Positions 8,704 to 44,562 of a DNA stretch of 64,000 bases are shown in pieces. Origin of the DNA: Pseudovirgaria hyperparasitica. Taxonomy: Eukaryota. Both the position numbers and the translations under genes were made by a program. The notes beneath the pieces were generated by a model. That model worked only from the letters and a program-made list of their open reading frames with translations. It was not told the DNA's origin and did no database searches. The stretch is from NCBI GenBank assembly GCA_010093815.1, contig ML996582.1; one strand, given 5' to 3'. How positions within the stretch are numbered: position 1 is the stretch's first letter; each line of letters starts with the position of its first letter.

Positions 8704-8952
8704 CTACCCCAGCACCGGCGGCCGCGGCGTCGGCGACACCCCCGTAGCAATATCGACAAACACACCCAGCACATCCGACGGCACCTGGGCATACACGTGC
8801 ACGACTTGCAGCGCACAGGGAACCAGGGTATACGTCAGAAACACATCGAAGAAGACATGTGCGGGGACGGGGATCTTGTGTAATAGGCCGAGGTCCTGGC
8901 ATGAGAAAGAGGGTGTCAGTGGGGTTTGTATGGTATGTATAGGAAGGGAGGT

Positions 8953-9017
<65 letters not shown>

Positions 9018-9518: not shown

Positions 9519-9867
9519 AATTCTGGTGTGATTCCAGGCAGGGTAGGAGTTTGTTATGACTGTTTGGAGTATAAAAGATGATGAAAAACCTCCACCGAGA
9601 AGAGCCTCGAATATCTGCCGGTGTGGAATTCGATAGAGTTCTCTACAAACAACCACTGTGAGCAAACAAGCGAGCGACAGCGGCTCTGCAATATATATAT
9701 ATATATATCTACTACTACATACATACATGTAGTAATGCTGGGGGCATTATGTCATTTTTTTTCCATCTTCACCACCGACGCATCCACGCATAACATGCAT
9801 ATGCATACGCATACACGATAACAAGCTCCCCACTACATGAATCCGGATGGATACTGCTAGCATCACA

Positions 9868-10000
9868 TGTGGGATTCCTATTAGGTAATCCCCGTTACTT
9901 AGATCTTATTTAGCGTTAGGCTGGTATATATAGCACTTAGATAGACTTAGTAGACACGTTAATTAATTTTTACCACGTCTAATTTACTAAAGTTCCTATA
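9868..10000 (+). repeat. E1 5' LTR (133 bp)
   Basis: Matches 31839-31971 except 6 RIP-type transitions; followed after 2 bp by TAGTAGC (de-RIP TGGTAGC, tRNAiMet-type PBS). Confidence 0.95.
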
Positions 10001-10149
10001 TCTAGTAGCTGAAATCTAGTTTTTATCCTCCTAGGGAGGCTATCGCTTCGGCGATGCCTCCTAAGGGGTAGTTATCTTACCCCTTATATAAGGGAACTCG
10101 TTAAAAACATTTAACGCTTACGACGAACTATATAACTTACTAGATAATA

Positions 10150-13100: not shown

Positions 13101-14034
13101 ATACCGCTTACTTACTAATCCGGAGAAATATAGTTTTAGCTAGACCGAAGTTAACTTCTATAGACACTACGTCTTATAAGGATAACTTCGCCTAATAAAG
13201 AATAAGATTAAGGTAATTCGCGAATAGCTAGAGTCTATAAACGTTAGCGAAGTCTAATAGTTCCTCGGCCTAGCGAATTATTATCAGAGGTATATCCGGG
13301 GATTTATAAGTATCGCCGCACCTCTAATAGACCTCCTTAAGGAAGTAGACCCTCTTATCCGTAAATAGAAATATAGGCCTATTTAATAGACGCTGTTAAC
13401 GGCGTTTACCTTCAAGACCCTAAAGAATACCCTGTGTTCCGAACCGGTTCTAGCTTAACCTAATAAGACTAAGCCCTTCTATATTAAAATAGATATAAGT
13501 AACTATACGATCGGTATAGTAATCTACTAGGAGAATCCTAGTAAGTAGTATTAGCTAATCGCGTTTAACGGACGAAAGCTTAATAGCGCCGAGCTTAACT
13601 ATCCGGTTTACGAAAAAGAACTCCTTACTATTAAACACGCCCTACGCACTTAGGGATACCTACTAGGAACGAAGAAGACGACGATCCTAACCGATTACTA
13701 TAGCCTATAGTTCCTTAAGTCTATAAAGGAATAAGAAGGCCGTATAGATAGATAGATTGATAAGTTCGGAAGCTTTAATCTCGATATAAAATATCGCCTA
13801 GGATCTAAGGCGGTAGTACCTAACGCCATTAGTAGAAGGCTAGACTTCTAAGGCGAGATCTCCGCGATACCGTTAAGTAAAGTTAATAAACACGTTCTTA
13901 TAGTCTAAATTATTAAGTTCCTAAAAGGAGCCGACCCGATAGAGCATGTACTAAAAGTCTCTCCCGAAATCCTATCTCGACTACGCCTTAACGCCGAGAG
14001 TAAACTTCGATATAAGCTATAGGATTTTAATAAT
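10150..14034 (+). pseudogene. E1 gag-pol remnant (gag knuckle, protease, RT, RNase H); start approximate
   Basis: De-RIP CFNCKKLGHISRFC ~11579; VLIDCGA ~11965; FKVMPF; YLNN (=YLDD) 13018-13029; LNYPVYEKELL ~13594; many RIP stops. Confidence 0.9.
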
Positions 14035-17000: not shown

Positions 17001-19312
17001 AGCGTATAGTAGAAATCCTTCTAAAACTTAGACGTTATCTACGGACCTCTATCCGAAACTATACTATTTAGTATACTATAGAGCCGAACTACGTCATGAA
17101 GTAGTATATCTATAAGATCCGGTACTTAGATCGTCTTCCTTATAGGGATGTAGTATAATATCTTCGTAAATCTATCTAGAACTATAAGTAAACTATTATA
17201 AATATACCTAAGATACTTACTTAGGGGTAGATCTATAATAAAATCCATCGATAATTCTTTCCATGCCTTATTTAGTATAGGCAATGGCCTTAATTCGCTA
17301 TATGGTAAGTATCTATATACTTTCGTATGCTAGTAAACGTTATACGTTTTTACGTAGTCCTTTATATACTTATAAAGACCTAGCTAGTCGTACGTCCTTC
17401 GGATTAAATCGACCGTCCTTATAACGCCGAAGTGTCCTACTAATGCGTAATCGTACTGTTCCCTTAAAACATTAATTTATAAGCTACCTTCCGGCACGTA
17501 GAGTCGGCCTTAGAAGTAGATCGCGTCCGATCGTCGTTCCCACCTTAATAACTATGGCGGTTCTATAGCGATTCCCTTTATGCTTATGACTTTCTTTACT
17601 AATATATTAGAATTCTAGGTAGATTTAATTAAGTCTTCGAGGATTTACTCTATTTCTTAGACGTTAGTTTAGATTACTTAATACCCGCTCTAATTCCCAC
17701 GGAGAGTCGCCGAAAGTGTCCTAGCTTCCGGCACTCTATTAGATAACTAGTCTTTTAGTATCTATAGTATAGTATAGTCTAAATTACACCGACTATCTAC
17801 GTTATTCTACGACGATTTCTCGTAATCTTCACGCCGTAATAGAGGATCTACTTTATTCTCTCTTCTAGCTTTATATAAGATTTTAAAGTTAAATATTAAT
17901 ATCTACTTAGCCTAACGTACTTATCGGCGATTAAGGACCTTAGTCGATATAAAGTAATATAGATTTACGTAATCCGATAATAATTTAATCTAATATATAG
18001 AGCCTTCTAAATAATGTCGCTATTACTTAAAACTCTTAATAATTATAAGTAGTTCCTAGTCATACGTGTTATAACGCGTCTCTATATCCACTATTTTACG
18101 GGAAAAGAAGGCGACCGGGTGCTATTATACCTTGTCTTTTACATCTTTATACGGTTAACTAATAATTCTAGTAATTACGAATCTAGATACGTCTATTTTA
18201 ACCCGAATATACTTCTCGGGATCGAAATATCTAAGGATTGGTATAGTTATAAAGTAATTCTTTAACGATTAGAACGTATCTCGCGCTTCCGGCGTTAACT
18301 ATATCTTAACTAACTCCGCTTTACGCTGTGCTCGCCCACCTATAGAGATTTTACCGCCATTTTTAGTGAGTTTATTAAGCGGCGCTGTAATTCGTAAGAA
18401 ACCTATAATAAATTTACGATAATAGTTTACGAAACCTATGAACGTCCTAATTTAACGTATAGTAGTAGGTTCTAGCCATTCTATAATGGTCTTAACATGC
18501 TCTGGCTCCATTTTAAGGCCGCCGTATATTATAATAAAGCCGAGAAACCTAACTTCTTATTAGTAAAACTTATATTTAGATAACTTTATATAGAGTTTAT
18601 ACTATCTTAAACGATTTAGCACCGATTTCACGTATTCTTCGTGATCCTATATACTATCGGAGTAAATTAGTATGTTATTAAGGTAAACTACGTAGATTAC
18701 ATTAAGTAATCCTATAAGTATAGTATTAATATATCCTTAGAACGCTCCTAGCGTATTTATTAGCCTAAACGGTATAATAGTATACTTAAAATAACTATAT
18801 CTAGTCCGAAATACGGTTTTCTATTTATCTCCGCGACGGATTCGAAGCCGGTAATATATATCTCGCAAATCTAGCTTTATAAAGTACTTTGCCTTCGTTA
18901 ATTAGTCTAAAGATTCACTAACTAATGGTAATGGGTGACGATTCTTCTTAGTTACTATATTTAGTGCTCGATAGTCGATATATAGACGTAAACTTCCGTC
19001 TTTCTTCTTTATAAAGAGAATAGGTATACTAGCTAATGACGTACTATAACGTATCTAGCCTCTTCCGAGATATTCTTTAATATATTTATAAAGAACTTCG
19101 AGTTCTAGTCTTGAAAGTAGATAAAGTAGACTATAAGGGACGTCTACTCCCTCTTCGAGCTCGATCTTTAGCTTATACAGTCTATGGTCGGGGAGAAGTA
19201 ACGCGTCTTCTACCGAAAATACATCCGTGTACTACGAATATACGTCGGGTAGCGTGTCTTTACCCCGATTGTTACTATCCTCTTCGTCTTCGTCGACGAT
19301 TAATAGAGATAT
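14035..19312 (-). mobile_element. E2: chromovirus (Gypsy with chromodomain), RIP-mutated, 5'-truncated, nested in E1 pol
   Basis: Putative 3' LTR 14035-14262 (TATAAG...CCTAATA) followed by reverse-complement PPT; on - strand RT (YLNN 18674-18685), RNase H, integrase, chromodomain (YEVK.IL...YKIRWKGY....DTWEP ~16230-16360); gag, protease and 5' LTR absent. Confidence 0.88.
14747..15728 (+). pseudogene. E2 antisense accessory gene, 4 exons, ~270 aa, Cys6 zinc-cluster-like motif plus C-terminal coiled coil (RIP-mutated)
   Basis: Exons 14747-14989, 15042-15226, 15289-15448, 15504-15728 join in one frame via GT-AG introns; de-RIP PCLAC...CGTCITKKRxCLQ|I; start ATA read as RIP-mutated ATG. Confidence 0.7.
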
Positions 19313-19550
19313 TATAATAAGTAAAGACGTAGAATAGTAGTCTAATAGTTCATAGAGAGACATAGAAATGTATTTATAGAGTAGTCTTACTCTTATACGA
19401 GGTTGATTCCTAACGAGTAGGAATCGGTTTATACGGTCCACTTATATAGTAACCTCGCTTAACCTAGCTAACTTATTCTAGCTCTAGCCGCTACGTGGCT
19501 ACATGGATTAGAATAGTCTATATAGGTCCGTTAGGGTTCCCGTCCTAATA
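19313..19550 (-). repeat. E3 3' LTR (238 bp)
   Basis: Direct repeat of 27099-27336 differing by transitions. Confidence 0.95.
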
Positions 19551-20029
19551 ATATTCTTCTTCTTTTTATACTTCGCCCCGAAGCACTTAAGTATATATAA
19601 TCCTAAGTCTCTATAATCTACTATATATCTATATATCCGTAACTAAGTTTCTATAACGTTATAACTATTCTTAATATAGGTAAACTCGAGATTCTAGTTT
19701 ACTTTTACTAGTTTATACACGCGCTTATCCCTTACTTTATAGCTACTACCTAGGACACGTAATTACTACTTTAGTTAAGTATATATTTAGCTTCGCTCGC
19801 CTTTGATTTTATTCTCTAGTATATCCACCTCGCTCTTAAGGTAAGTCGTTAATTCATATACTATCTTCTCTAGTTTAGGTTTAGAAGGGTCTATTATGGT
19901 CTATTCTTATTAGAACCGGTCCTATATAACCTATTCGCGTTATTACGGTTACTAATTTAGCTTCGTTAATTACCGTTAAGGGTAGACGAATATTCCTTCC
20001 TTAGATCTCTAGCTAATATATATATATAG

Positions 20030-21345
20030 ATGTCTAATACTAGTCCTATCTCTAAGCCTGCCTCCTCCTCTCGTAAGACTCGCTCTAAAGGTATTACCTC
20101 CTCCCCGGCCACGCTAGCTAAGAAGCCTACCTATTAAGATAGTATAAAGGCGCGCTCTAAGTCGGAGAAGAGGGTAGCTAGGGCTACTACTACTACTTCT
20201 ACCTCTACTACTAATATAGCTACTAGTCGCTCTAATCTAGGTAATCCTAGTACTGAATTTATGGATAAAGCGGTCGTAAGTTCTCCCCTTACTCTAACGC
20301 GTACGCCGCCTACTCTACCTCCTCTAGAGGATAAAGAAGATCTTATTATAGATGATAATCGCGAGCCCTCGCGCTTACCTACGCCGCCGCCTCACCGCTC
20401 TCCCTTCCAGTCTAACATAGACCAATTTAGTTACTCTAGGTCCTTTTAGGACCTTAATATTCGCTCTAAACCCTAGCCTACTAATAATAAGACCTAGGTC
20501 GCTAAGGATACTAAACGTAGTCGCGGTTTACGCCATAGGAAAACAGCGAACTACAGTTTAATATACTATAAGTATATTAAGGGCTATACGGCCGGCTCTA
20601 AATATCTCTTTCGCTCTAACTCTAGTATTAGCTACTACTCTACTAACCGCGACGGGCCTATACACCCTATCTTTACTCTACCTACCCGCTACCGCCACTA
20701 TACCATAACTAGTAAGACTTATCTATAGGTAAGTATAATAGGCTATCTTAGTCTAGTATAATCTAAAGTTATCCACGCTAATACATTCTTAGATTCCTAT
20801 ATATATATAAGATATATATAACGACCTTCGCGTCCGCGAGACCCTCGGGGGTCCTTATAGCTATCTATCTACTATATAGAGGGAGTTTAGAGAGCGCTAT
20901 AAGCTCTTCCTAGAGGTTATTAAAGTATAAGTTATAAACACGTTAATTATTTTTAACACCTATTAATATTTCTAGCCGCCGCGAGATCCCTAGCGCCTAG
21001 GCTACCTATTCTAGAGAGTCTATCCTAGCTATAGAGACCGTAGAGAGGATTCGCTCTATCCCCTCTTATCCGTCTCACGCTACTAACAGATCTTATAAGA
21101 GGTCTACTATTTCTCCCTCTAAGTCGCCTCATAAGAGGGTATATATTCCCTTCTAGATTATTCTAGATCATATTAGCTAACTTTAGACCTAGTCGCTGCG
21201 CTCCGGCGCTTAAGGCTCTTCCCTCTAGGCTCTAACGGATTAGATTATTACTCTAGAGGCTAAGGTCATTACCCTCCACCACTATATCGTGCAGTTAGAG
21301 AGAACTATACTAGAGGTTATAACGGATAATAAGATAGAGGAGTAG
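20030..21345 (+). pseudogene. E3 antisense accessory gene, 4 coding exons, ~384 aa, S/P/K-rich N-terminus, Cys6 motif, C-terminal coiled coil (RIP-mutated)
   Basis: Intact ATG at 20030 directly after a 5'UTR intron 19841-20029 (GTAAGT..GCTAAT..TAG); introns 20729-20792, 20927-20975, 21139-21186 keep one frame; de-RIP CxKC...C...CRHCTMTGKTCLQ|IP. Confidence 0.75.
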
Positions 21346-21899
21346 CTCTATGGTTCTAGCTCTATATATTAGCTCTATATATTCTAGATCTACTATAGAT
21401 AGTGCGCGCCGGCTCTATTTACCTAGCTTTTATCCATTTTAGTCCTTTTTTAGACCATTTAGATACCCGTCGACTAGTTTCTAGTAATTTAATTCTTAAC
21501 TTAACAATATTATATATACGCTCGCTTAGCTTATAACTATCGGTTTCTACATTCTAATTTTCCTTAAGTTACCTAAGTATAGGCACCATATATTAATTAG
21601 TTTATCTCTATAAATTCTATTAGAGTACCCGAACTAGTAGCCTAGTAGTTATTAGTTCGGGTACTCTAACCTTTTATATTTTATATTAAGAGTTTAATTC
21701 TATAGTAGGGTACCTTTTTTAGGTTCTTAGTCCTATATTTTTCTCGTGTATAATAGTCCATATTAGTCTATTCTAGACTCTTCTATTATAGTATATCGCG
21801 TCGCGTTCCTAAAATAGTTACTTACGCTTTCTTCGCGTCTAGTAACCGTATAATACTTAAATTATAGGGCTACCTTATAGAGTTTTCCTAGTACGCGTC

Positions 21900-24800
21900 T
21901 AGATTTCCTAATTAAGTACTTCGTTCTCTACGGCATCCTTCTTCTTTTTATAACGACCGCGACGTCGCTATATTTACATTAATAATACGCTATTCTATAT
22001 CTTTTACTTATACACAGCCATTATAGAACTTAAGATATATACCGCTAGTTCCTAGGTATCCTCGTCCTTAGTGTAGTCCTTCTAATAGATTCTATATTTC
22101 TAAACACCGTCTTTATCAATTCTATATTCGATAATATAGTCCACTTCAAACACGTCTAGTCTATCTTAGGGTATAATAGAGTGTAACTATACGTTCGTGC
22201 GGTTATACACGTTAGATCAAAATCTTTCGAGTAGTAAGACGTGAAACACATTATAGATTCTTATATCGCTTCCTAAGTCGAGCTCGTAGACTCTTATACC
22301 GATATAACGTTTAATTCGGAAGGGACTAGCCATTTTATAATCGAGCTTCTTATTTACTCGCGATATTCATATATTACGGACGTTAAGAAGGACCTCGTCG
22401 CCCTCCTCATACGTCTAATCCTTAGCTAACCTATTATAGTACTTCATATACAAGTCGTTTACTTATTAGATTATAGCGCAATAGTTACGTACGGTTTTAA
22501 AGATTTTAATCACTAATTCCTAAGCGTAGACGTTCACGTCTATTATTCGATTAAATTAGACCGTATAAGGCTTAAAACCTATCCTTAGACTACGTCCGAG
22601 GTTCGCCTAGAAAGGTATAATACTAGTCATACTATAACGACTATTATTATATACGAACTCTACTATACTTAGTAGGGAGGCCTAGTCATCCTACTCAAAA
22701 TTATAGAATACGCGTAGGTAGGCTTCGAGCATCTAGTTCTATCGCTCTATCTAGCTACCCATCTAAGAATAAAATACTATAGACATATTCCTATTTATAC
22801 TTACTATTTCGTAGAATAACGTCTAGAATTTAGACGTAAAGGTACTTCCTCAGTCCATAACGATCCTTTTTAGTATACCATAGACCTTAATAATCTCGTT
22901 CTAGAACACCTACGCTAGTTCTTTAGATGTAATCATCTTCCATACCGGGATATACCTAGATATCTTTATAAGTCTATCCACAATAATAAGAATAGAATTA
23001 TAACTTATTCTAAGTATCTCGCTTAGAGATAAGTTAACTATAAAATCCATAGTAACGTCTTCCTATATAAAGAGAGGGACTAAAAGAGGCTATAAATTCC
23101 TATATAGCTTATGCCTAGGGGCCTTCATTCTTTAACAAATCGGATAAGTAGCTATCTATTCTTCGACGTACTTAGGTATATCTTCCTAAAAATAGTACTA
23201 ACGAATTAAGCTTAGGGTACATATATACCTAAAGTATCCTACTAGGTTAGCGTTATAGTATTAGCTAACTATATTAAATCACGCGTTACCCATCAGCATA
23301 TAGTACTTTCTATTATAGTAAAGTAAGCCGTCCATGAAGGTCTACTTATAGTCTACTTTAGTCCATAATAATCTATCTTACTATATTTTACATAACTTTA
23401 AAACTATCGGGTCTATCTTCTATAGATCCACGATTAACTAGACAAGGTTAATTAGATATTCACGCCGGGTATTATCGCCCTTCCCAATAGCGCTAATAAA
23501 CGGCCTACTAGGGACTTCGGTACCGCGTCTTTAGTTACCGGCTTCGGTCTTAGAGATTCGATTACCGGCATCAACGTTAGTATCTCACTAATCACCTAAT
23601 AACTTAAAATCTAACCTCATCCTCAAGAGTTAGGCCTATAGCTACTCTAGAACCCTATAGCTACTATAATCCTAGGCGCCTTCTTTATAGTTAGGTCTTC
23701 TTAATATTCTATTAGCTAGGTTTATACTTCTAGATCAATAGTAGATTATAAAGTAAAAGTTCGTAAGCTACTTAGCCCATTAAACCTATTAACGGTTTAA
23801 AACCATCATGCTTATAAACCCCTTTAAGTTATAGTAATTAGTTAGTAACTCAACGTTATACATGGCACCTTTAAGATAATATCACCACTATTTAAACGAC
23901 TCTACTATTACTAGTAGCTCTTAGTTATAGATAGTATATCTAGTCTTAATATCGACTATTTTACGCGAGAAGAATGTAACTAGATACCATTAGACCTTTT
24001 TAGACTTAGTTAGTCTAGACTAGAAGAGAATACCTAAGATTATAAATCCTAACGCGTTAGTTTTAACGTAGATAGATTTAGTTAGGTCGAAGTATACTAG
24101 TAATAGGGTAGTAGTAAATACCTCTTTGATTTTCTTAAAGAAGGCCCTTTCGCCTTCCGATAATTCTATAGACTATAATTTAATATTATACTATTTCTAT
24201 CTACCGCGGACCGTAATAGACAAATCTATAGTAGTAGTACACGCGTTAAGCGGTACTACTAGCCGGGAGAAGTACTTAACAAATTTTCAGTAGTAATTAG
24301 CGAATCCAATAAAGACACGTATATCTCGAACCAATTTTAGTTTAGGCTAGTCCACAATAGTAGCAACCCTATCCCTTTCTATAGTTATACCTTAATTAGT
24401 AATAACAAAGCCAAGGAAGTTAACGTAGTCCTAGTGGAACTCATATTTAGATAGCTTAATATATAGCTTATATTTTTCTAGCCTATCTAGGACTACGCGT
24501 ACGTGCTAGATATATTCTTCTTCATTATTAGAGAAGATAAGAATATCATTAAGGTATACGATACACGTCATATCAAGTAGGCCTACTAGCGCGTTATTAA
24601 TATACGCTTAGAAGGTCCCTAGCGCGTTAGTTAGTCTAAAAGAGACCACTATATACTCAAAGTATCCATAACGGGTCCTAAACGCCGTTTTCCACTCATC
24701 GCCCTTCTTAATATATAGGCGGTAGTAGACGTCACATAGATCGAGCTTAGTAAAGATCTTCGCGCGCCCTAGTCTATTAATAGACTCAGAGATAAGAGGT

Positions 24801-27076
24801 AGTAGATAACAATTCTTTCATATAATATTATTTAGGCTACAGTAGTCAATACATAGACAGAGACTCCTATCCTTCTTCTTTATAAAGAGGATTAGAGCTC
24901 CGGCTAGGGATATACTAGACCTAATCTATCCTCGCGTAAGGTTCTTTTCGATATATTCTCAGAGGACCTATAGCTTAGGTTCTAATAGAGGGTAGATAGG
25001 TCCGTATAGGGGTTATTAACTATCCTCAAGGTTAATAGTAAGATCAGTAGATTAGTATTAAGGTAATTCGGACGAGTCAATCGCTAACGCGATATATTAG
25101 TATATTTTATACTAATATAGTAGGTTTTCGTCCACTTTAATACTAAGTTCTCTATTTTAAGTAAGTAAGAGAACGTAGATAGTAGAGATTACCTTTTCAT
25201 AGTCCTTCTAGAATTATTCGTCGTCAACTAGCTATACTAGGTTCTATTATAGTAGGTGCATACGCTAGCCAGCTATTTTCTAGATGAAGTCTAGTTTCGG
25301 GTTATATTTTTCAAGCTACGGTATACTAAGAATCATATCAAAGGGGCTATCTACCACGATAAAGGTTAAGTAGTAGAGTTTCTACTTCCCCCCACTATCC
25401 TAGATACCATATTTAATAGTATAGATACCCTACGATTTAATAGGACCATCAATACTATAGAAGGTAGTATCTATTAGTACTTAAATATCAACATTAAGTT
25501 CTCGTGCTCATTAAGTCGATATAACGTTAGTAGCTAAACTACTATCAAGTATTACAGTCTAATGTTATCCACAGGGGACCTTAATAGGCCTAGCCTATAG
25601 TTTAATATACTAGTTAGCTAGTTATCCCTCTATTTTAGTTACGCCTATAAGTCGCGAGGGTTTCTTATAGGTAGTTAGTTTTTTATATTATATACCGGGT
25701 AGTTAGGCGCGATATATCCTAGCTACTAGCACTTATAGTATATAACTAACTTAGTATCTATATTAGTATTCAGTAGTTTCCTAGAGCGGTACTCGGGTAC
25801 TATATAGCCTATCCTACCATAAGTATAGTAGGTAACTTTAGGTTATTTATACGAGTCGTTTCTCGCGTCTCGATATATTAACCGGTAGGAAGATCTACGG
25901 TACGGGCCTCGTCCTCTTAAGTTCATAGAGTAGTAGTACCCACAAGATATTCCGCGCGATCTATTACTAAACCAGTCCTCTTTAGACGATTTCGTATTAG
26001 ATTAGATTAGTAGGGATAGTCGTGCACCTATACGGCGTTAGTTATTTATTATACGCTAGTATCGTTCTATAAGATTCACGAGTACCTAAAGGTCAGTAGA
26101 GATAGACGTTATAAGATTAATACGTTCTTTTACACTCGGATTAAGGGACCTTTTAAAGTTATCATATTATCAAACCATACAATCTTCCTTAGCTTCTCTC
26201 TAGAGAGGTCGGAGGTATTCAAGGAGTTATAACGGGGATTATCTTTCTCGCTATTAAGTCTTAAAGATATAGCTCTAAGCCTATTCGCGTCGCTCGGCTC
26301 TATCACTAAAGCATTAAAGAAGGAATTCGGTGAACATATCCTAGTTATACACATCCTTAGGGTATTTAATCCAATATACTATCTAACGTTTAGATAGCGT
26401 TAGATCTAGGTAGTTCTATACGAACCTAATCTTATTACTATCGTTCGTAAATAGATAGAAGAATTAGCTATACTAGTAAGCCTATTTATAAAAGCTCTTC
26501 CTAGTTTTACCATCGAAGTAAGGTAGTTTCTTAGGCTAAGGTAACTAGGATAGTAATAGACTTAGTTAGACTATTTCGGCTTAAGTTAGTCTATATTAGT
26601 ATAGGTTAGTTACTACTAGTACTAAAGCGCGTAGTACGGCTTCGAGTCTAGCGGTTTATCCTTATACTTCGTCGAGTTCACGAAGTTACTATTTAAGCTA
26701 AGCCTAACGCTATCTCTCCGCGTGTAGCCTAGTATATATATTATCGTGAGGCGTAGTTAACGTTAGTCGGTTCTAATAAATTAGTTTATTAACGTTAATA
26801 GGGTCTGGTCTTATAGTAAGGATAGGTCTAGTATAGTATAAACTAGACCGCGATAGAGTATAATAGACTCCTTCCTTATTATCTAGGTAGTCTTCCACGG
26901 TTACATGGAATACCGTACTAGTTATTAGTATAATAGCTTATAGGGTATACTTATTAGTAGAGGTGGTCGTAGGGAGACTATTCTCCTCGTTTAGATTTAG
27001 GGAGAGTCTCTCGTAGGAGGTCGTGCCACGGGTATTATAGCGTGTAGTAGGAGCTATCTCTATAAGCTACCGTCAT
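21900..27076 (-). pseudogene. E3 gag-pol remnant; 3' end approximate
   Basis: Probable gag ATG 27076; slippery A AAA AAC 25678-25684 just before the gag stop; pol domains in the -1 frame. Confidence 0.88.
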
Positions 27077-27098
27077 ACTATATAGGGAGGAATTAAAA

Positions 27099-27336
27099 TA
27101 TAATGAGTAAAGACGTAGGATAGTAGTCTAATAGTTCATAGAGAGATATAGGAATATATTTATAGAGTAGTCTTACTCTTATACGAGGTTGATTCCTAAC
27201 GAGTAGGAATCGGTTTATATGGTCTACTTATATAGTAACCTCGCTTAACCCAGCTAACTTATCCTAGCTCTGGCCGCTACGTGGCTATATGGATTAGAAT
27301 AGTCTATATAGGTCCGTTAGGGTTCCCGTCCTAATA
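27099..27336 (-). repeat. E3 5' LTR (238 bp)
   Basis: Repeat of 19313-19550; TATATAAG on - strand at 27227-27234. Confidence 0.95.
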
Positions 27337-29070
27337 GGTATTAACTTTATAGATATACTCCCCACTACGTATAACGGTAATAGTTAGATAATAATAGTAA
27401 TTAACTACGTAACGGGATGGCCTATCGTATAGGTAGTCCCTAAGGCGACCGTAGAGTCCGTCGCGAGGTTTATTTATAAACGAATCTTTATAGATTTTAG
27501 ACCCCCCGCCGCACTAACCTTAGATAACGGTTAGTAGTTTCTATTAAGAGTGGTTAGCGCACTACTACGTATCCTTAAGACGGAATATAAACTTACTACG
27601 CCTTATTACCCTCGTATAAACGGAAAGGTTAAACGCCTTAATAGAACCTTAGAAGGTATCCTTACCCGTATATGTATAGGCGAACTAGTAACTAACTAGG
27701 ATATATACTTACTAGCCGCCGTTTTCGCCACGAGGATCCGACGATATAGAAGTATAGAAGTTAGTCTATATTATCTAGTATATAGATAGTACCCTAACTT
27801 ACTAGGGAATATTCCTAGAGAAAAGGATAAGTTAATATCCTTTAACGAACTTATTAAGTAAGTTAAGAAAGTATAACACGCTAGGACACTAGCGCTAAAC
27901 GAACTACTTATGGAAGCCGCTCGCCGAGACCTTATAGATCCGACTCGGCTTAAACCTAAAGACTAGGCGCGACTACCTATCGGTTAAATCATTTTACTAA
28001 AGAATAAATAGAAAACGAAGTTTAAAACGAACTACTTAGGTCCCTATAAGGTTCATATATAATACCCCTTAGATATATACGCGCTAGAAACACCTAACGG
28101 ACGTATTCTACGATACCTTATATATGGTAATAGACTAATTACGGTAAGAGGCATTAATAAGCTAGATAACTTCTAGACGAGATAGGAGATTAACTTATAA
28201 ATATCTAAGGAAATTAGGAATTAAGTGGCACCTTACTTACTAGATATCGAGAAGGTTTTAGAGAAAGAGAAACCTACCCTATATTAGACGACTCTATCCT
28301 CCCTTCCTAAGAAGGAGTAGAACCGGCTATAGTAGCTACGGAGTTAACGAGAGTTAACGTACGAGGGCGTATATTCGTTCTTAGTAGAGGAGAGCTCGAT
28401 AGACGTAGATATTACGCGTTAAATTAGGCTTACTAATATAAGAAATCGACGTAAACGGAGAGCTACCGTAACTACATTAATCGTACTAGTACTAATCGTT
28501 ATTAACAAACTAAGAAATATACTAGAAGAATAACACGAGAATAGTAGAGTAATATAACTACTAATAATAAATATCGAAGAGAGCTACGATACTCTAAGGG
28601 TAGAGGAAGCCTAAACGATAACTAAGAAACTAATAGATAATCTATTAAACGAGATTAACACGGTAGAGGAAGCCATGATAGAAGCGAGATAGAAAGAATT
28701 ACCTAAAGAAATAAGCTTAGGAGACGAGTTTAATAATACACGAATAGACTTAGATAAGGATGTCTAACTAGAATATAAGAATTCTATAAGTATAGATATA
28801 GACTTAGATATAGAAGAAGTATTAAAGAAGGTTAATAAAGTAAATAAACAACCCCTAACCGACTCGGACTACCCTATATAGAATCTTATAGAAAGCGAAC
28901 CTTATACGCGAAAGAGAAAGCGATTCTATATAGATGAACGTAGTAGAGAAACCTAAGCGGCTATAGCTAGCGCGTTAAGATAAGTTAATAGATTAGAGGG
29001 AGAGAGGTACTCTCTACGGAAAAAGATATTACCTTCGAAGCTATTATAGGAAAGCTTAGAATATAACTAA
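27337..29070 (+). pseudogene. E1 integrase catalytic core and acidic C-terminal tail; end approximate
   Basis: De-RIP GIDF..LPTT, IDY.TGWP, LTSDNG.QF, TTPYHPR.NGKVERLN, YLGPYKV; no chromodomain seen. Confidence 0.88.
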
Positions 29071-29339
29071 CTTTAGTCTTTCCCTAATTATCTCCTTTAT
29101 ATATAGTACTACTAACCCCCTATTTACTTATTTAGAATATATACAGCTATTAAAGAAGATTAACGAGTCTTAGAAATTACTAGGAGGTTAAAGAAAGAAG
29201 ACGTGGACTTATAATAACATTATATAAGTCTAAAATTACTATTTAAGAACCGTAAGACTAAATAGAGATAAAAGAAAGCCGTTAACGCCTTTTAACGCTT
29301 AATAAGATAGAGTATCATTATAAAATAGAAGCCGCCTAC

Positions 29340-31456
29340 TTAGTCCTAGACCTTACGAGTAGAATTTAGTAGATTCTTTATAAATTATACTAATACCTTC
29401 TCGCTCTCCTCGGGCATGCCATCGTTAATTAAGAACTTATATAGTAGCCCTTAAGGCGTGTAGCTAACCTTACTAAACGCGTTTATCGGACGACTAAACT
29501 AATCTTTAACGGCTTCGTTAAGCGGAAGTCCTTTATCTTTAAGGTCCTATATAGAATAAATAGGGATAATACTCGGGTCGGGAGATATAGTATTATTAAA
29601 GCTAGGAACGAGGACCTCCGGACCGCCGTAATACATCTATTCTATTATAGCTATAACCTTTTAATTAGCTAGAGATTATACGAGATATAAATCTAACTCA
29701 CGAGTAAAGGACTAGCCTTAGAGTTTAATCTAGTCTTCTTAAGACCTAATAACTTCTTTTAACGAAGTTTAGTAGCCGAATACTTTCTAGTAGCCTTAGT
29801 TATCTCTATAAATAAAGACTACTCGGTACGTTAGCGCTTTTTAATAATATTACGCTCGCTACGGTATACTATAAGAACGCGTTAAACCTATTAAAAGCCT
29901 TTAACGATATAAAGGAATAACTTATAACGCGATATACTATAGAATTTCCTATTCTCTTAGTGGAAATAGTTTAAATAGGTACCTTTAAATAGTAGGAACC
30001 CGTTAGGAAAAAGCTATATACACTCCCTAAAGATACCTTTACTAGTAGAATAAGAACTATAGGCGCTATCGCTAAAGTACTAGTATACGCCGCGAGCTAT
30101 TATGCCTAGGATAGCCGGAATAGTATAGAGATACGATCTATCTAGGCGTTTCGAAGGATCCCGAAAGATCCCTCCTTCTACTATAATATTCTAAGAATAA
30201 TAGTAGTTACTAAACTTATCCGTTATATAGAACGGAAGTAGATTCTTCGGAATCGAGGCGTGCTAACTACTAGCGTACGCCTTAATAAGGCTATCGATAA
30301 ATTCCTTATAGAGTATTCCGTTAATAGAAGGGTCCGAGAATAGCTACCCTAGGATAAGTTAGCTAACCGTTAAAGATAATTAATAAGATAAGGACTTACT
30401 CTAGTAAGCTAACTACTATATAAACTTAATAGACTTCCCTAAAAAGAAGTAGTAATTAGATCGAACTCGGAGGCCTATATAATCTACTACTTTAATCTTG
30501 GCATTACTATAGCTATTAAGTTTATTTACTATAGGTTACGCTATCGTACTAACCTTATAAGAAGCTATAGACCCCTTTCGCTTTACGGGAGTCTTCTTAA
30601 CGACCTTATTAGGACTTTTAAGGTCTATAATAGCTAGCTTAGAAGTTATAGAGCGAGTTTTAGGGCTATTAAATACCTTTAATAGAGTCCTTATAGTACT
30701 ACGGGTCTTTACTAGAGTCCTAGGTATTCTAGAACGAGAGCCTAGATAAGAATTAGGAACTAGAATCTTAATATAAGACTTAGCGACTTACCTTTCTTAG
30801 TTACCTTAGAAGTAACTATATCGCCGAGCTCGTTAACTTCGATTAACGTATTACTATCGAGGTCTAATAACCTAGAGCTTTCCCTATCTTTATTTTTAGG
30901 ATAGAAAATATTATTAGAGTCTTCCGATAGGTTCGCGAACCGACTAGCTTTTATAGGGGCTTCGAAGGGCTCGTTAAGGGTAATTAATATAGACTCTAGA
31001 CCCGTAACTTTACCTAGAAGATCTATATAGATTAGCGGGATTCTTATGGAAGGGTATATTAAATAAATCACCTTCTACCTTAGGAAGAGGCTCGTTAATA
31101 GCTATTACCGATCCTTAAGAGGCCGGAGCCTTAACTTTAGCCTTAGAGACCTTAGGTTTAAGGCTCTAACCGCCTTCTTCGATTAACTAAGCTAAAGCTT
31201 TATCTTCTAGATCTAGTTCTTAAAAGAATAGCGAACTCTAAGGCCCGTTTAGATATAGATAGCCGTAGGCTATCTTTAAGTAACTCTTACGAACTATATA
31301 GTTAACCTATACTTAAGGAATAAGGTAACTTAACCTACTATCTAGAGTACCTTTATTCGCCGCTAATACTTTATTAAGTAATAACTAGTTAGAATTTCTA
31401 TATAGAGGACCTAAGAAAGCACGACAAAGATCCTCGTTTATAACTATATCCGCTAT
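29340..31456 (-). pseudogene. E1 antisense accessory gene, 6 exons, ~620 aa, DUF3716-like Cys6 domain (RIP-mutated)
   Basis: Introns 31023-31071, 30742-30791, 30349-30399, 29869-29925, 29658-29701, most with GTRAGT-like donors and CTAAY branch points; de-RIP CSSC.TGKGIFRECIQ...KGAC.NCFHQEN.KFCS at 29936-30061; gene ends uncertain. Confidence 0.72.
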
Positions 31457-31838
31457 AGAAAGTTTAAGTTAGAAGGGAAAAAGGTAAAGTTAAAGTTTAT
31501 ATATATAAAATTATAGTATTAATCGGAGTAATTTCTAAGTTTATAGGAGTTTTAGCTATATTATTAGATATTATTAAAAGGAATTAGCGCTGGAAAAACT
31601 AAGGAAAAGATTAAATTAGTTAAGAAATATAAGGTTAAAGGATAGTAGAATATAGGAATAGTAAAGGTAACTATTTAGTACTAAAATAAGCTTAGACTAC
31701 CGCCCTTACGTGACGTATTGCTAATGCGGCCTAGCGCCAAAGAGATTTCACATATCTACCTCCCTATATTATATATTCTAACTCTATTAATCGTCTTTAA
31801 CGGCCTCGTAGAAGCTTATATAATTAGAAGGGGGAAGA

Positions 31839-31971
31839 TGTGGGATTCCTATTAGGTAATCCCCGTTACTTAGATCTTATTTAGCGTTAGGCTGGTATAT
31901 ATAGCACTTAGATAGACTTAGTAGACACGTCAATCAATTTTTGCCACGTCTAATTTACCAAAGTTCCCACA
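31839..31971 (+). repeat. E1 3' LTR (133 bp)
   Basis: TG...CA termini, preceded by PPT, followed by the CACA TSD. Confidence 0.95.
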
Positions 31972-32144
31972 CACAACCCATGCACCCGTCAGCCGCAGCT
32001 ACATTGCCTGTATAAAGCTAGCAGCCGCGCATCGAGATCCCTGCCTGAATGGTTCGATCATTTCCCCTTCTAGACAGTCTAAATGGCACCCTGGGAGGGA
32101 GGGGCCGTCGATCATCATCCACAGTATACGATGCTGACTGCGCG

Positions 32145-38182: not shown

Positions 38183-40168
38183 TCATTTGTGATCCCTGCG
38201 AAAGGCACTGAAGAGGCGTCTGATGCTCCCATGCTTTTTCTGACATTTCTCCGCAGCAGGACTACTACTGCTCAGGGGTATCATACTTGTTGGGCGAGAC
38301 TTTGAATTCCTTGGAGTGGTGCAGGCACTGAGTGAAGCGGACAAATCACCCGAATCCCAGAGATTCTTGGTCGATTCGGGCGGGAGATATGCAGAATGTG
38401 CGCGGGGAACGGTCGTTTGGGGGTCTGGTGGCCGATTTGATGGTGTTTGATGATATTTCTCCACCTCTGCCTCTTCATCCTCCTCGCTTGCTGCGGGTAG
38501 CGGGGGTGCAATTGCAATCTTGGGAGTGGTAGTAGTACTCATGGCAGAGGTGTGTTGCTCCTTGTCTGAATCAGTCCCCTCGTCTGCTTCGGCCAGATCT
38601 GGCGGTAAGGATGTCCGCTTCCGTTGCCGTTTACTTGAAGCACGTTGCAGGTAGACCGAGCCAGTAGAGGTTGAGCGGCGCGTAGCGAAGGTGGTGGGAA
38701 GCGTCGAGACTCTGGTAGGGGCGGCAGGCGCAGTCTCTGTTGCAGAATGATTGGTGGCGGTGATGGTCTGGCTGCGCAAGGTCGTGGGTGATCGGAAGAG
38801 GCGTGGAAAGGTTCGGCGTGGCTCTTCCGAGCTTGTCGAGCTGCTCAGAACGCTGGCAGTGTCGGAGATGGGCAGGGAAACTCTGCGTTGCGGCGGCGGC
38901 GACGCAAGCCCAGCAGGCGCGGCGGCTGATCCATCGAGTGTTGTCGTTGAGTCGGCAGCAGCAGCAGCAGGCTGGGCATAGCGGAAAGCTGTTGACCAAT
39001 TCTCGCAAAAGGCAACATAGACGCCCGAAACGATGATGAATTTACGCAAGGCGTCGTCGGTAAAGGCCATGTCTTTGAGATCCAGGTTCTGCGACTCGAG
39101 GTAGCCAGAGCCGGTGTCGAGGAAGGCGGCGGTAGGGGATTCTTGGGGTGTCTGACCCGGCGATGTATCTGCTTTTGCTGGGACTGAATACTGATGCATG
39201 ATTTCCAACTTCTTGGGCGTCATGGAGGCGATGACTGGATGGCGTCTGGAGTCGGCACTGATTGTGCTGAAATTGAACTTTTTCTTCTTCTGATCCGGAG
39301 CGAGCGTCTGTGCCGAGACACGAGCTATGGACTGCGAGGACATCCTGCGCTTCGGGGCACGCACTACCCATCGAGCCTTGAGCTCGAGGCCGTGATGATC
39401 GGTCGAGGTGAACTCGTAATTCCCATTCCGCAGTTGCGTCACATTCCACACCGAGTTGTCATCCATGCATATCTCCGTGCGCGTGCTCTTGCCGTCCTGG
39501 CTCCTCGTCACGCAAACCACACCAACCGGCTCGCCTCCTTCTGGGGTGTCGTCGTCCAAGCTCTCATTATCGTCGATAGGGCCATACGAGTCCGATCGCA
39601 TGACGACGACATCATCGGGCCCAAGCTTTTCTATGGCCTTGAATATACGACCGAGTTTCCGGGCGAATCGAACGGGACAGCGGGTGGAGGGAACGACCTC
39701 GAATTCGGGCCGTGGACGAGAACCGGGCGTCAGCTTGTGTAGCTGTAGGAGCACGCGAGGCCTGACATGGAGCTTCTGTCGCTGGCGAGGGCCTGGCGGA
39801 GGGTGGGCGAGATTGAAGACCGACTTTGAGCGAGAGGAACGAGTCTTTTGTCTTGACGGGTCATCGTCGGCGGTGGAGGCATTGGAGACGACGTCTTCAC
39901 TGGCGTGAGAGAGGGTATCGGAGTCTCTTAGCATCATGCTCTTGCGGGCAGTATGTGTGTGGGATGGATCGGTGTGAAGCACAACCTTTTCTGGGAGGGT
40001 GTCTGGCGGAGGAGGTTTCTGGAAGGAGACGGCAGAGAGGAGGGCGTTGAGGGCGAAGCGATGCAGAGGAATGGAAGGCGAGTCGAGGGACGGAGAGGTG
40101 GAAGTGGGCGTGGAGAACTCGTGGCCGTGCTGTGCAGCGGCGTCGGCAGCCATTGAGGAGAAGAACAT
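38183..40168 (-). CDS. Fungal hypothetical protein (661 aa) with S/T-rich disordered C-terminus
   Basis: Long single-exon ORF with globular core (LAHPPP..RPRVLLQLH..RPRPEFEV; FNFSTISADSRRHPVIASM). Confidence 0.8.
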   Translation of the reverse strand: MFFSSMAADAAAQHGHEFSTPTSTSPSLDSPSIPLHRFALNALLSAVSFQKPPPPDTLPEKVVLHTDPSHTHTARKSMMLRDSDTLSHASEDVVSNASTADDDPSRQKTRSSRSKSVFNLAHPPPGPRQRQKLHVRPRVLLQLHKLTPGSRPRPEFEVVPSTRCPVRFARKLGRIFKAIEKLGPDDVVVMRSDSYGPIDDNESLDDDTPEGGEPVGVVCVTRSQDGKSTRTEICMDDNSVWNVTQLRNGNYEFTSTDHHGLELKARWVVRAPKRRMSSQSIARVSAQTLAPDQKKKKFNFSTISADSRRHPVIASMTPKKLEIMHQYSVPAKADTSPGQTPQESPTAAFLDTGSGYLESQNLDLKDMAFTDDALRKFIIVSGVYVAFCENWSTAFRYAQPAAAAADSTTTLDGSAAAPAGLASPPPQRRVSLPISDTASVLSSSTSSEEPRRTFPRLFRSPTTLRSQTITATNHSATETAPAAPTRVSTLPTTFATRRSTSTGSVYLQRASSKRQRKRTSLPPDLAEADEGTDSDKEQHTSAMSTTTTPKIAIAPPLPAASEEDEEAEVEKYHQTPSNRPPDPQTTVPRAHSAYLPPESTKNLWDSGDLSASLSACTTPRNSKSRPTSMIPLSSSSPAAEKCQKKHGSIRRLFSAFRRDHK

Positions 40169-41908
40169 GTGGTGAAGTGGGTGGGTGAGTGAGTGGTTAA
40201 GGCGAATGGAAGGTGGAGGATGGCAGGCACATGCCGATGGTGGAGGTGGTGAGGTGGTGAGGTGGTGAGGTCAGAGCATGAGTGGGACGAGAAACAGCAT
40301 GAGCGAGAAGAGAGGGAGGGGCAGATGAAGATAATATTATTAGGATTACGGACGGACGAGCTGAGGCAGAGCAGGAATCGGAGGAAAAAGATTGGAGCGG
40401 CGTTCAGCCTCAAAAGGAAGAGCCGGGACTGGCACAAGGCTGGCTGGTAATTAGGGTATTGTTATGAAGGAATGGTAGGAAGCTGGGTGGTGGAAGTCGG
40501 TGTAGCTGACGTGAAGGTGGACAAAGGAGTCGGAGTGTAATGTAGTGGAGTAGAGGGGATTGGTAGTAGGTTGTTAGTTGGTGTTAGGATAGGGATTTTA
40601 GTTTGGCTGACAGGTCTCGCAAGCTGGGCGAGAAGCGGTAAGAGGAATTTGTTAGTAGGAATGCAGTCAAGTGACGGACAGAAAGGAGGAGTTCAGCCAA
40701 GAGCGCGGACGGACGAGAAGAAGATTTCGAGTATTATTATGATTCGGCTTGCCAGACTGGTGAGATGGAGTGATGGATGGGATGATGGGATGGAGAGAGA
40801 GACCGGGGCATGGGTGGTGGTCGGCATGACTCTCCAGCCGGCTCCGGTGATGAAGGTGACTTCTGGATGATGAAGGTGGGCTGACTTTAGTAGGATGGCG
40901 GAATGGCCAGGCTAGGTAATTAAGGTAATTATTAGACAAAGACACTCTACGCAGTCGCAGATTATCCAATCCATCCTCCCTCCCTACCACCACCTCTTTC
41001 GCTTCCACAGTTCCAGGTGGGACATGACGACAAGACGATGAAACCGGGGCCGCCGCATTGGACCTGATCCAGGCAGCGATCACTTTGCTAACCAGTATAG
41101 AACTATAGAAGGACAGTTACGGGCGGGTGGTTCGCAGCGTGCCAAGCCAGCCGACCAGGATGGCGCAGTCGCATCATTACTGGCCCCCCTTTGAAGTCTT
41201 GAGCAGCAACAGAGTTAATGCTCCGGGCGCAGTCGGCGACGTTCGTTCAGGGGGAGAGATGGCTGACTGACTCTGGCTGAGTGGTGACTGGCACCAGGCT
41301 GGGTGTAAGTAGAGTGTATACTGTATAGTTGCAAGTGACGGGTCTGTAGATCTGTCAAAGCCCGGCACTGCTGCTGTGTAGGATCAATAAATTACCAATT
41401 ACCAATCCCTGATTACACATCACCCACACGTTACCCATCGAGGGGCAGCCCGTCAGCCCACCGGTAATAGGAAAATAGCAAGACGTTCGCCGCGTTGACC
41501 CTTCCGCACGCATCCGAGAGAGAGACTACAACATCAGACTGTTGTCCCTTCTATCATGCCTTTTGCTGCGAGTCTTGTCGTCCTCGTCGTCTTGGAGCTG
41601 TGCCATCGCTATCATCACCATTGACCTGCGAGCCTGCCCCTCCCTCGGCCGAATCCTCATTTCTCTTCAAAGAAGGAATCTTCATGCCTGCATCGTGACT
41701 ACTGTCCACCTTACTGCTTCCCTTCCACCCTTAATTACCATCCCACTCTGCTCGCTATAAACAAACACACAATCACTCACTCACTCACTGCTCTTCGTCT
41801 TCATCCCCAACCAACAACCATCCATACTTGCACTCTGGGCCACTTTCATTCTTTCACTCATTCATTCGCTATTATCCATCCATTCTCCCATACACGCCCG
41901 GCCCGCCC

Positions 41909-42131: not shown

Positions 42132-44562
42132 CCACCACTGAGCCAACATCTGACAATGTCATCTGCTACTGTCCCATGAATCTGTCCATCTCCTACCTCA
42201 ACGTACTGCCCCCAGATCACCCACACTTCAAGCTCTCCATCCCGCATTTCTATGATAGTCTGGCTGCCAAGCTCGTTGCCTCCACCCCTCTCCACGTCGT
42301 CTCCTGGTTCTTCTTGGCCGAGCAATATCTAAAAGGCAAGGACTCGCCCTGGTACTACTACATCGCCGCTCTGCCTCCCATCGGTGACATTCCCTGGATA
42401 GACGAGGATTACGTCAAGCCCTGGCTGCGAGGCACAAACCTCTTCCATGCCACCGACGCAAGAAACGTCCTATGGAATTCCTGGATAGAAAAGGCCTTGC
42501 AAATACTGCGCGACGCCGGCTTCCGTCACCTCGACAAGTACAACTGGTCAGCCTCTTCACTCCTTCTTGTGATGCAACAAACGCACACTGGCCGACACTG
42601 CTCCAGCCCCCATACTGACTGGCCCCTCAAGCCGGCTAACTGAGTTGCAGGGATCTCATGCACTGGGCTGCACAGCTCTACTCCTCCAGAGGCTTCACTT
42701 CCACACACATCTTCCCAGACATCACCCCTCCTCTCTCCATCCTCTTTCCCGTCATAGACTTTCTCAATCACAGCAACGATGCAAAAGTCACCTGGGCCTT
42801 CACTCCCCGCGCCAATCCAGACGGCTTCTACCTCGAGACCAACCAGTCGCACAAACGGGGCGACCAAGTCTTTAACAACTACGGGCCAAAGTCTAATGAA
42901 GAATTGATGCTGGGATACGGTTTTTGTATCAAGAACAATCCATTCGATCATGTCGTCATGCGTCCCGTCCTCAGTCACCAGCTCGACCAACTGAGCCTCG
43001 CCTTCAGAGAAGAACTGGCTGCCTGCTCGGGCAGGAACGTGGTCGAACTGCAGGCCGGTGTCGACTTCTTCATCCGCAGAGCTGACCACCCGGCTGGCGA
43101 CTACCGCGCCGCCAACTATCCCACCCTTCTCACCTTCTTTCACCCTCGTCTGGTGAGGATGCTGATCGGGCTCAGCTACGCCACCTCCCATCGCGTTCGT
43201 CGCAACGGCCGGGCCCCCATCGACTTGGGCAAGCCAGACCAGGGTCGTCTCATCCTGCAGGCCTATCGCAACATTGTCAAGTCTCTCGAGGGCCGCGTCG
43301 CCGCTATCCGCCAGAACCAGAGAGAGAATGGCGTGCCAGAGAGCGCGCGCCAGAACTTTGCCGTCATTTACCGCGACTCGCAGCTCGACATTATGCTCGA
43401 CGTCATCCAGCGCTACACCGAGACGGTCCAGTCCCTTCTCGCCGTCGGCCAACGCCCACTTCCAGACCTCAGCGGCAGCTGCGCCATTGTCGACCTGACC
43501 AATGTCATGTACGCCCTGAGGGAGACTATGCCCGACCACTACGAGGACTTTGTCGACGGCATCTCGAATGAGGTGCCCGACACGCGTGATCCGGCCGAGA
43601 TTGTGAGCCACGAGAATGCCGACACCGTCTTTGTCATGCTGCTCGCCTTTATCAGGACGAGCCGGGTCGTGCCCCTGCGGAACGGCCTCATCCTGCTCCC
43701 ACAAGCATGGGTTTCGGACCTCATGGCCTCCTACACCCGTCCCATTGCCGATGCCGTAGACACTGTCAGCAGACCCTTTTGCGAGTCGGTAATCGAGCTC
43801 GCCCGGCATGGCCGCAGCCCGTCCTCGGTCTGGCTGGAGAATGAGCCCGAGAATGACATGGTCGAGAATATGGTGTGGGCCATGTGGGTCTTTGGCCACG
43901 AGGCCTGGCACTGGGAGGGCAGGGACGTTATTTATGTCCGAGATTTGGTTGGCACCGTACCCTTTCATGGCTATGCCAAGGAGGACTGGCTGTGGCCAGA
44001 CTGTCCCGCTCCAGCCGAGGGCGGCGGCGGCGGCGGCGGCGGCAACGTTGACGGCGGCGACGACGACGGCGATTCGGGGGTGACCAGAGACGACGGTGAT
44101 TCGGGGGCGACAGCAGCAGCAGCGGAGGACAATTCGGATCTTGGTTCTTCTGAGGCGGTCGGTGGTGGTGGTGCTGCTGCTGCTGCTCCTAGGCCCATGA
44201 TTCGCGCAAGAGTCTCCTCCGGTCTGGCCCCAACAATGCCGTCGAGAGTGACGGAGAGAATGGCCGAGCAAGCGCCGTCGAGACAGCCGTCGACGGGGAA
44301 CCTGTACACTGCCAGTAATGGTGTCAACGGTCATGCTGCCGACGGTCCTGCTGTCAACGGTCATGCTGCCGACGGTCCTGCTGTCAACGGTCATGCTGCC
44401 GATGGTCCTGCTGTCAACGGTCATGCTGCCGACGGTCCTGCTGTCAACGGTGATGCTGTCAACGGTGATGCTGTCAACGGCCGTGCTGCCGATGGTCCTG
44501 CCGTCAACGGTGATGCTGTCAACGGCCATGCTGTCAATGGATCATCAAGCGGAGCCAACTAG
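41909..44562 (+). CDS. SET-domain protein lysine methyltransferase (Rkm1/SETD3/SETD6-like)
   Basis: [62 protein letters not shown]; intron 42547-42650. Confidence 0.88.
44322..44540 (+). repeat. Coding 30-bp tandem repeat ([10 protein letters not shown]) with 15-bp sub-units at the SET protein C-terminus
   Basis: GTCAACGGTCATGCTGCCGACGGTCCTGCT repeated about 4 times, followed by degenerate copies. Confidence 0.92.

Follow-up and report, generated by a model that had tools for sequence, protein, structure and literature searches.

The 64,000-nucleotide stretch of Pseudovirgaria hyperparasitica DNA analysed here (contig ML996582.1 of assembly GCA_010093815.1; the window) contains a Ty3/gypsy retrotransposon, named E1, that repeat-induced point mutation (RIP) has inactivated. 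Past pol and ahead of the polypurine tract (PPT), the strand opposite to the retrotransposon genes probably holds the remnant of an accessory gene with approximately 620 codons and up to six exons, the product of which contained a DUF3716 domain. The position, strand and introns of this gene, the kinship of its domain, and its decay are established by the observations presented below. The gene had been proposed in an earlier sequence-only reading of the window, which we follow up here.

Position and exon structure of the antisense gene

E1 is a RIP-degraded element of the Ty3/gypsy type, with long terminal repeats (LTRs), a PPT, and the domain order reverse transcriptase (RT), RNase H, and integrase, all on the plus strand. 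The 5′ LTR at 9867–10001 is approximately 135 nt long and starts with TGTGGG, and its CA end reads TA in the present copy. The 3′ LTR is located at 31838–31972. The direct repeat of 9867–9996 and 31838–31967 is 97% alike, and its alignment extends to approximately 135 nt. The PPT is a purine run at 31825–31837, immediately 5′ of the 3′ LTR. Protein domains of E1 were identified with Pfam in the plus-strand frames, with stops written as X. The RIP-damaged RT and RNase H occupy positions 12691–13767 (RVT_1, 9.1e-19; RT_RNaseH_2, 4.3e-22). The integrase core at 27352–27612, which has a weak match to rve (E 0.009), is followed by a long acidic C-terminal extension of pol, so that the whole feature spans 27352–29050 with an approximate end. 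Frame +1 is open to approximately 29000–29050 after the integrase core, and the codon model described below also selects frame +1 there. The antisense gene is located at 31456–29340 on the minus strand, between the integrase and the 3′ LTR, where the sequence-only reading had placed it.

The gene is composed of exons 1 (31072–31456), 2 (30792–31022), 3 (30400–30741), 4 (29926–30348), 5 (29702–29868), and 6 (29340–29657), all on the minus strand. Recomputed exon lengths of 385, 231, 342, 423, 167, and 318 nt sum up to 1866 nt in one frame, and the intron lengths of 49, 50, 51, 57, and 44 nt are reproduced as well. The donors of introns 1–5 read GTGATT, GTAAGT, GTAAGT, ATAAGT, and GTGAGT, which include GTAAGT twice and GTGAGT, as had been claimed. 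Exon 1 contains 10 stops in 128 codons, and its possible start is ATA at 31456. Exon 2 is formed by 76 codons without a stop, and is connected to exon 3 by the canonical intron 2 at 30742–30791 (−). Exon 3 encodes a basic tract rich in serine, threonine, and proline that resembles a nuclear localization signal (NLS), and the string KKTPVKRKGS is present in its frame. Exon 4, which harbours the DUF3716-like domain, follows the canonical intron 3 (GTAAGT..GCTAAC..TAG). Exon 5 is followed by intron 5 (GTGAGT..CTAAT), the length of which is 51 nt with the acceptor of the canonical pattern vs 44 nt in the sequence-only reading. Support is only moderate for exons 1 and 6 and likewise for introns 1 and 4. 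The end of exon 3 (30400–30520, −) bears a weak likeness to a copia RNase H motif, based on a pairwise match of 29 bits to a protein composed of repeats. This likeness is treated as chance, since Pfam finds no copia domain there.

The density of stops cannot decide the strand of the gene, since frames +2 and −1 are equally open over 30000–31200. The same mirror effect is visible over pol. Three independent lines of evidence, from introns, open runs, and codon composition, favour the minus strand. The intron pattern GT[AG]AGT..CTAA[CT]..YAG was counted over both strands of 21.8 kb of RIPed DNA (43.6 kb). It occurs six times, and three of these occurrences are introns 2, 3, and 5 of the antisense gene. 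The two longest stop-free runs in 28900–31850, at 30762–31077 (315 nt, including exon 2) and 30538–30790 (252 nt), are both located on the minus strand, in different frames, with their junction at intron 2. RIP converts C to T and G to A, and a purine therefore never becomes a pyrimidine, which leaves a codon model of purine/pyrimidine triplets undisturbed. The model was trained on the four pol segments of the window and selected the true frame in all four leave-one-out tests. The proposed minus frame is the best of six for exons 1, 2, 3, 5, and 6 (frames −1, −0, −1, −1, and −2, respectively), and it remains the best in four of the six exons when the class of stop-containing triplets is removed. 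A sliding scan with the model reads −1, −0, −1, ambiguous +2/−1, and −2. The scan switches frame at introns 1, 2, and 5, the very introns that had been named as necessary to restore the frame.

The antisense gene is dead in the E1 copy. The joined frame is closed by 28 stops (TAA or TAG) among 622 codons, and five of the six cysteine codons of the domain read tyrosine. Over 30739–29702 (346 codons), each of the 18 stops is either TAA or TAG. Five stops fall within the 36 codons of the in-frame introns 3 and 4, and 13 within the 310 codons of exons 3–5.

An intact relative of E1 with an antisense DUF3716 gene

An alignment of six pol relatives of E1 was used to retrieve 79 metagenome loci. One of them, L001, is an intact gypsy element. 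Its contig is 7475 nt long and the contig ends overlap by 127 nt, which closes a 7348-nt unit with an LTR, gag (931–2268), and pol (2247–6380). The unit contains the element only. A minus-strand open reading frame (ORF) at 6625–7320, directly past pol, contains DUF3716 (PF12511, E 2.6e-16). The match scores 59.7 bits against a cut-off of 22 and spans positions 1–59 of the 59-position profile.

The antisense gene of L001 starts with an ATG at 7469. The 47-nt intron 1 (GTAAGT..CTAAC..TAG) precedes the exon with the domain, which is followed by the 59-nt intron 2 (GTACGT..CACTAAC..AAG) and a last exon that ends in an acidic tail. The spliced coding sequence of 804 nt in three exons has a single, terminal stop and encodes 267 amino acids. 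The N-terminus of the protein is RGG-rich, and all of its six cysteines are located within the domain. Of the 30 clusters nearest to the L001 protein in a protein atlas, 19 are DUF3716 clusters from ascomycetes. An AlphaFold prediction of the L001 domain without an alignment had a mean pLDDT of 44.7 and was unusable.

DUF3716-like domain in the antisense gene of E1

The sequence-only reading had described a domain with six cysteines at 30061–29936. The spacing of x2, x9, x14, x2, and x8 residues is present as claimed; the six cysteines, however, are one TGT and five TAT codons. Two other zinc motifs of the low-GC block served as a calibration. The zinc knuckle of E1 gag and the zinc finger of the nested integrase both show tyrosine at every cysteine position, and also at one histidine position at least. 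The tyrosine/cysteine spacing by itself is not unusual, with 17 matches vs 9.4 expected from shuffles.

The DUF3716-like reading is supported by a RIP-aware alignment of the Pfam-validated domain of L001, which singles out the same site. The 63-residue domain was compared with the six frames of 10000–31800, at three assumed mutation rates, using a log-odds score that sums over every codon from which C>T and G>A changes could produce the one observed. An earlier version of the score, based on the highest value among the possible ancestors, was dropped because it was too permissive, with background blocks averaging 101. The best match is located at 30061–29933 on the minus strand and scores 73.7–78.9 across the mutation rates, whereas the next best scores 41–45. 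In the shuffle test, none of 500 shuffled queries reached the score of 78.3, the shuffle maximum was 65.0, and the next best real match scored 44.3. Five of the 500 shuffled queries had their best match in the region of the domain. The alignment of 43 columns contains 14 identical and 15 RIP-reachable residues. Residues other than cysteine agree with the L001 domain in the G.F before the third cysteine, the FKGT before C.NC, the phenylalanine after it, and the terminal CS. A BLASTP comparison of the raw E1 translation with L001 paired the core of the domains with eight identities in 15 positions (E 0.031). We consider 29933–30061 (−) to be a RIP-damaged cysteine-rich domain of the DUF3716 type.

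Other copies of the gene region and distribution among related elements

The region 29200–31600 belongs to a repeat family. It is matched at a likeness of at least 80% by 322 and 134 contigs in two runs of one sample, which cover 30 of 30 bins. In run X1, the differences comprise 47 A>G, 67 T>C, 62 C>T, and 60 G>A changes, and three transversions. Since the differences are nearly all transitions, in both directions, the copies were RIPed independently. The three differences in length that separate the region from relatives amount to 51, 105, and 21 nt, each a multiple of three.

A GC-rich relative, found in another sample with the same species label and also in the window's own sample, is represented by a 9033-nt contig that matches the window region in three patches only. 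By hand comparison, nine of the 30 letters beside one patch differ in the RIP direction, the in-frame TAG of exon 6 is CAG in the relative, and the frame of exon 3 gives a string rich in lysine and arginine beside another patch. The GC-rich relative appears to be un-RIPed and has about the length of E1. The E1 family may have been active recently.

The antisense DUF3716 gene is carried by one of the 43 Pfam-scanned loci, which is L001, and by E1. DUF3716 is absent from the other 42 related loci that were scanned. A phmmer search with the L001 ORF against 5769 ORF pieces of the 79 loci returned the self-match only, and a cysteine-motif screen of the loci likewise found only L001. Pfam detected no family at all in 134 minus-strand ORFs of 15 close loci. 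These are 134 of the 144 listed ORFs, and the ten omitted belong to L010, a near-copy of L008. No DUF3716 was found in 100 ORFs of 27 distant loci. Seven of these 27 gypsy loci (L024, L034, L035, L036, L039, L042, and L073) contain Transposase_28, an antisense domain of the plant type, in a minus-strand ORF downstream of pol. This detection provides a positive control that the scan is able to find antisense genes. Only 31 of the 79 loci extend at least 800 nt past the pol match.

In an RT tree of 88 rows (FastTree), E1 and L001 belong to one well-supported clade of 74 rows and to different subclades within it. The placement of E1 is weak because of its long branch. Locus L003 is a complete unit of approximately 5.4 kb, and in L002 more than 2 kb separate pol from a neighbouring hAT element. 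The latter element adjoins the gypsy element of L002 at 7993–9788, and encodes a hAT-type transposase with DUF659 and a hAT dimerization domain. A general association of DUF3716 with LTR elements is so far supported by two elements, E1 and L001.

Weighing of alternative explanations

Several observations weigh against reading the minus strand of E1 as the remnant of a DUF3716 accessory gene. The raw translation, read with X at stops, matches none of the Pfam families at E≤10 in hmmscan (the cut-off of PF12511 is 22 bits); the missing match is expected because five of the six cysteine codons are altered. A HMMER search with exons 3–5 found no credible homologue among 1.84 billion representatives. 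Its sole match, a copia-like protein with a fivefold repeat, was rejected since each repeat gives 29 bits pairwise and the score is inflated by repetition. A word search with the domain alone returned three candidates, none of them at E≤10. TAT codons in RIPed DNA may descend from TGT, but also from CAT (histidine) or CGT (arginine), and the contig of one relative has CGT at a TAT of the window. In the codon model, exon 4, which bears the domain, scores slightly better on the coincident plus frame. E1 and L001 do not form a sister pair in the RT tree, and their genes share nothing detectable outside the domain, where 62, 38, and 99 of 100 shuffles equal or exceed the real score for three parts of the query. 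The complete relatives L002 and L003 lack an antisense DUF3716 gene. The gene may be present in every E1 copy, as suggested by the contigs that cover 29200–31600.

One could argue that there is no gene at all, and that the open runs, intron-like strings, and tyrosine spacing are by-products of TA-rich RIPed DNA or the mirror of a plus-strand ORF. The equal openness of frame +2 over 30000–31200, the preference of the codon model for that frame over exon 4, and the commonness of the tyrosine/cysteine spacing would all fit such a view. It is, however, very improbable and already close to refuted, given that half of the canonical intron patterns (3/6) are located within the antisense gene, that the frame switches exactly at introns, and that the log-likelihood summed by hand is approximately 13 nats in favour of the minus over the coincident plus frames. 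In addition, the match to a real DUF3716 domain is specific to the order of its residues, and 0/500 shuffles reach its score. Similarly improbable is the idea that the domain belongs to another zinc-finger family, such as the fungal Zn2Cys6 cluster, and only resembles DUF3716. Six cysteines in a CxxC...C...CxxC...C layout are what such a family would display. Nevertheless, the spacing of x2, x9, x14, x2, and x8 does not fit the Zn2Cys6 consensus, and the residues other than cysteine agree with the validated DUF3716 domain of L001. No Zn2Cys6 match was found by Pfam in the raw E1 translation at E≤10.

The strongest competitor, which we nonetheless regard as unlikely, is that the gene is a passenger, derived from the host or from part of another transposon, that was acquired separately by the E1 and L001 lineages and has no role in retrotransposition. 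Consistent with this, the two genes have only the domain in common and are unlike in size and exon number (approximately 620 codons and six exons vs 267 amino acids and three), E1 and L001 belong to different subclades, gene-less elements occur elsewhere in the same large clade, and DUF3716 genes are also described on a class II transposon of Zymoseptoria (PMC8232023). An independently acquired passenger is harder to reconcile with the equal position and orientation of the genes in two elements. The 29.2–31.5 kb stretch is found across many RIPed copies, and no terminal repeats flank it. Wherever relatives differ in length, they do so by a multiple of three, as expected of a frame under selection, and the L001 gene is fully intact in a 7348-nt unit that holds nothing besides the element. 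We therefore prefer an accessory gene that belongs to the element over a passenger.

Proposed role of the antisense gene

As an accessory gene of the element, the antisense gene would encode a product of three parts: the basic tract that resembles an NLS, the DUF3716 domain with its six cysteines, and a further C-terminal part. By the general biology of retrotransposons, an intron of the antisense strand is expected to outlast reverse transcription, the genomic RNA being the other strand. Since the gene is antisense to the genomic RNA, its introns would not be spliced from the RNA that is reverse-transcribed, and would be copied with the element. This accounts for the presence of a spliced gene in a retrotransposon. 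The gene would be transcribed from its own promoter, probably located within the approximately 370 nt adjoining the 3′ LTR. We hypothesize that the gene encoded a nuclear factor that bound zinc and nucleic acids and served the element, because of the NLS-like tract, the six cysteines, the RGG-rich start of the L001 protein, and a report on a Neurospora crassa protein, NCU05718, a DUF3716 protein called there a telomeric sequence-binding protein (PMC10776026). Its exact role is a guess, and may have been the choice of the target or the control of element expression.

DUF3716 is a widespread ascomycete domain without an assigned role, and the present results place it in a testable context, that of a zinc-binding nuclear factor of mobile elements. 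A more far-reaching, and on balance doubtful, possibility is that DUF3716 is a nucleic-acid-binding zinc module that has been carried repeatedly by both classes of fungal mobile elements and steers integration in gypsy elements that lack a chromodomain. On this view, many "hypothetical" DUF3716 genes of ascomycetes, perhaps including the one for the telomere-sequence-binding host protein, would have originated in transposons and would either still belong to them or have been domesticated. For annotation, caution is advisable, as DUF3716 genes attributed to the host may in some cases be cargo of transposons.

Anatomy of E1 and its setting in the window

The integrase of E1 is split by nested insertions, as minus-strand pol sets are located between the RT/RNase H and the integrase core; E1 proper is approximately 9 kb long. 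The insert at 14300–27336 (−), the left edge of which is approximate, contains two pol sets of Tf2-like chromoviruses, with RVT_1 (3.1e-40), Integrase_H2C2 (9.3e-12), SH3_Tf2-1, and Chromo found by Pfam in the minus frame. The sets are arranged in tandem, and recognizable 238-nt LTRs, at 19313–19550 and 27099–27336, are present for the second set only. The RT of the first set starts approximately 300 nt from that LTR, and its 5′ part therefore seems to be missing.

E1 belongs to a chromodomain-less clade of fungal Ty3/gypsy elements. Of 2198 candidates in a search with the E1 RT–RNase H region, 339 were pol proteins with E≤1e-5, and the top match reached 6.7e-101 at 46–47% identity. The nearest relatives have neither a Chromo nor an SH3_Tf2-1 domain. 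A long acidic, low-complexity extension past the integrase is present in six of the six relatives inspected. In E1, the pol tail beyond the integrase core (27613–29050, +) comprises approximately 450 codons and is acidic and lysine-rich, with an AT skew of +0.25 in 28001–29000. The codon model favours frame +0 over 28020–28650, which indicates a possible frameshift in the tail. A scan of viral contigs for pol found no relatives of E1.

The G+C content is 0.32–0.39 across approximately 10000–32000, except for a single 1-kb bin at 0.415. Translations of this low-GC block contain many TAA and TAG stops and tyrosines, with 7.7% tyrosine, 0.5% cysteine, and 0.8% histidine (n = 43,598 codons). Such translations, together with the low G+C, are a signature of RIP. 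The flanks of the window are GC-normal and contain ascomycete genes, among them cellobiose dehydrogenase with CBM1, a P-type ATPase, MTHFR, and a sugar transporter. A 695-codon ORF at 38183–40270 (−) matches no Pfam family, and adjoins a 1-kb bin at 40001–41000 with a very strong GC skew of +0.48. A 60-nt tandem repeat at 44315–44540, the copies of which are approximately 91% alike, is located within long overlapping ORFs at 42526–44541 (−) and 42640–44562 (+) without a Pfam match.

Comparison with known systems

We found no link between DUF3716 (PF12511) and LTR retrotransposons in the full-text literature, the coverage of which mostly excludes subscription journals. Antisense genes as such are already known from fungal and plant gypsy elements. 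In Botrytis cinerea and Sclerotinia, the element Boty, or BcGypsy1, has brtn as its antisense gene (Zhao et al. 2011, cited by PMC7264820, PMC8365987, and PMC4227169). According to these accounts, Boty is, like E1, a fungal Ty3/gypsy element, and its extra gene is located past pol and ahead of the 3′ LTR, on the opposite strand. The accounts assign a CHROMO domain to Boty, and the relatives of E1 have none. The plant gypsy elements Grande, RIRE2, and Retand are reported to have antisense ORFs between pol and the 3′ LTR, of unknown function and conserved within families (PMC7264820). Their position and orientation equal those in E1, but the protein is different: seven of the 27 distant loci of our scan contained Transposase_28 in that position, and none contained DUF3716.

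The class II transposon REP9 (IS3EU) of Zymoseptoria tritici has two DUF3716 genes, according to PMC8232023. As described there, REP9 is similar to E1 in that DUF3716 proteins are accessory genes of a fungal mobile element, and differs from it in being a DNA transposon rather than an LTR retrotransposon. The closest counterpart of E1 is L001, which belongs to the same pol clade, and the DUF3716 gene of which is likewise antisense, interrupted by introns, and located past pol and ahead of the LTR. The L001 protein of 267 residues, encoded by three exons, with its RGG-rich N-terminus and acidic tail, differs from the product of approximately 620 codons in six exons of E1. Antisense genes of Boty and plant gypsy elements, and DUF3716 in a DNA transposon of Zymoseptoria, are thus known already.

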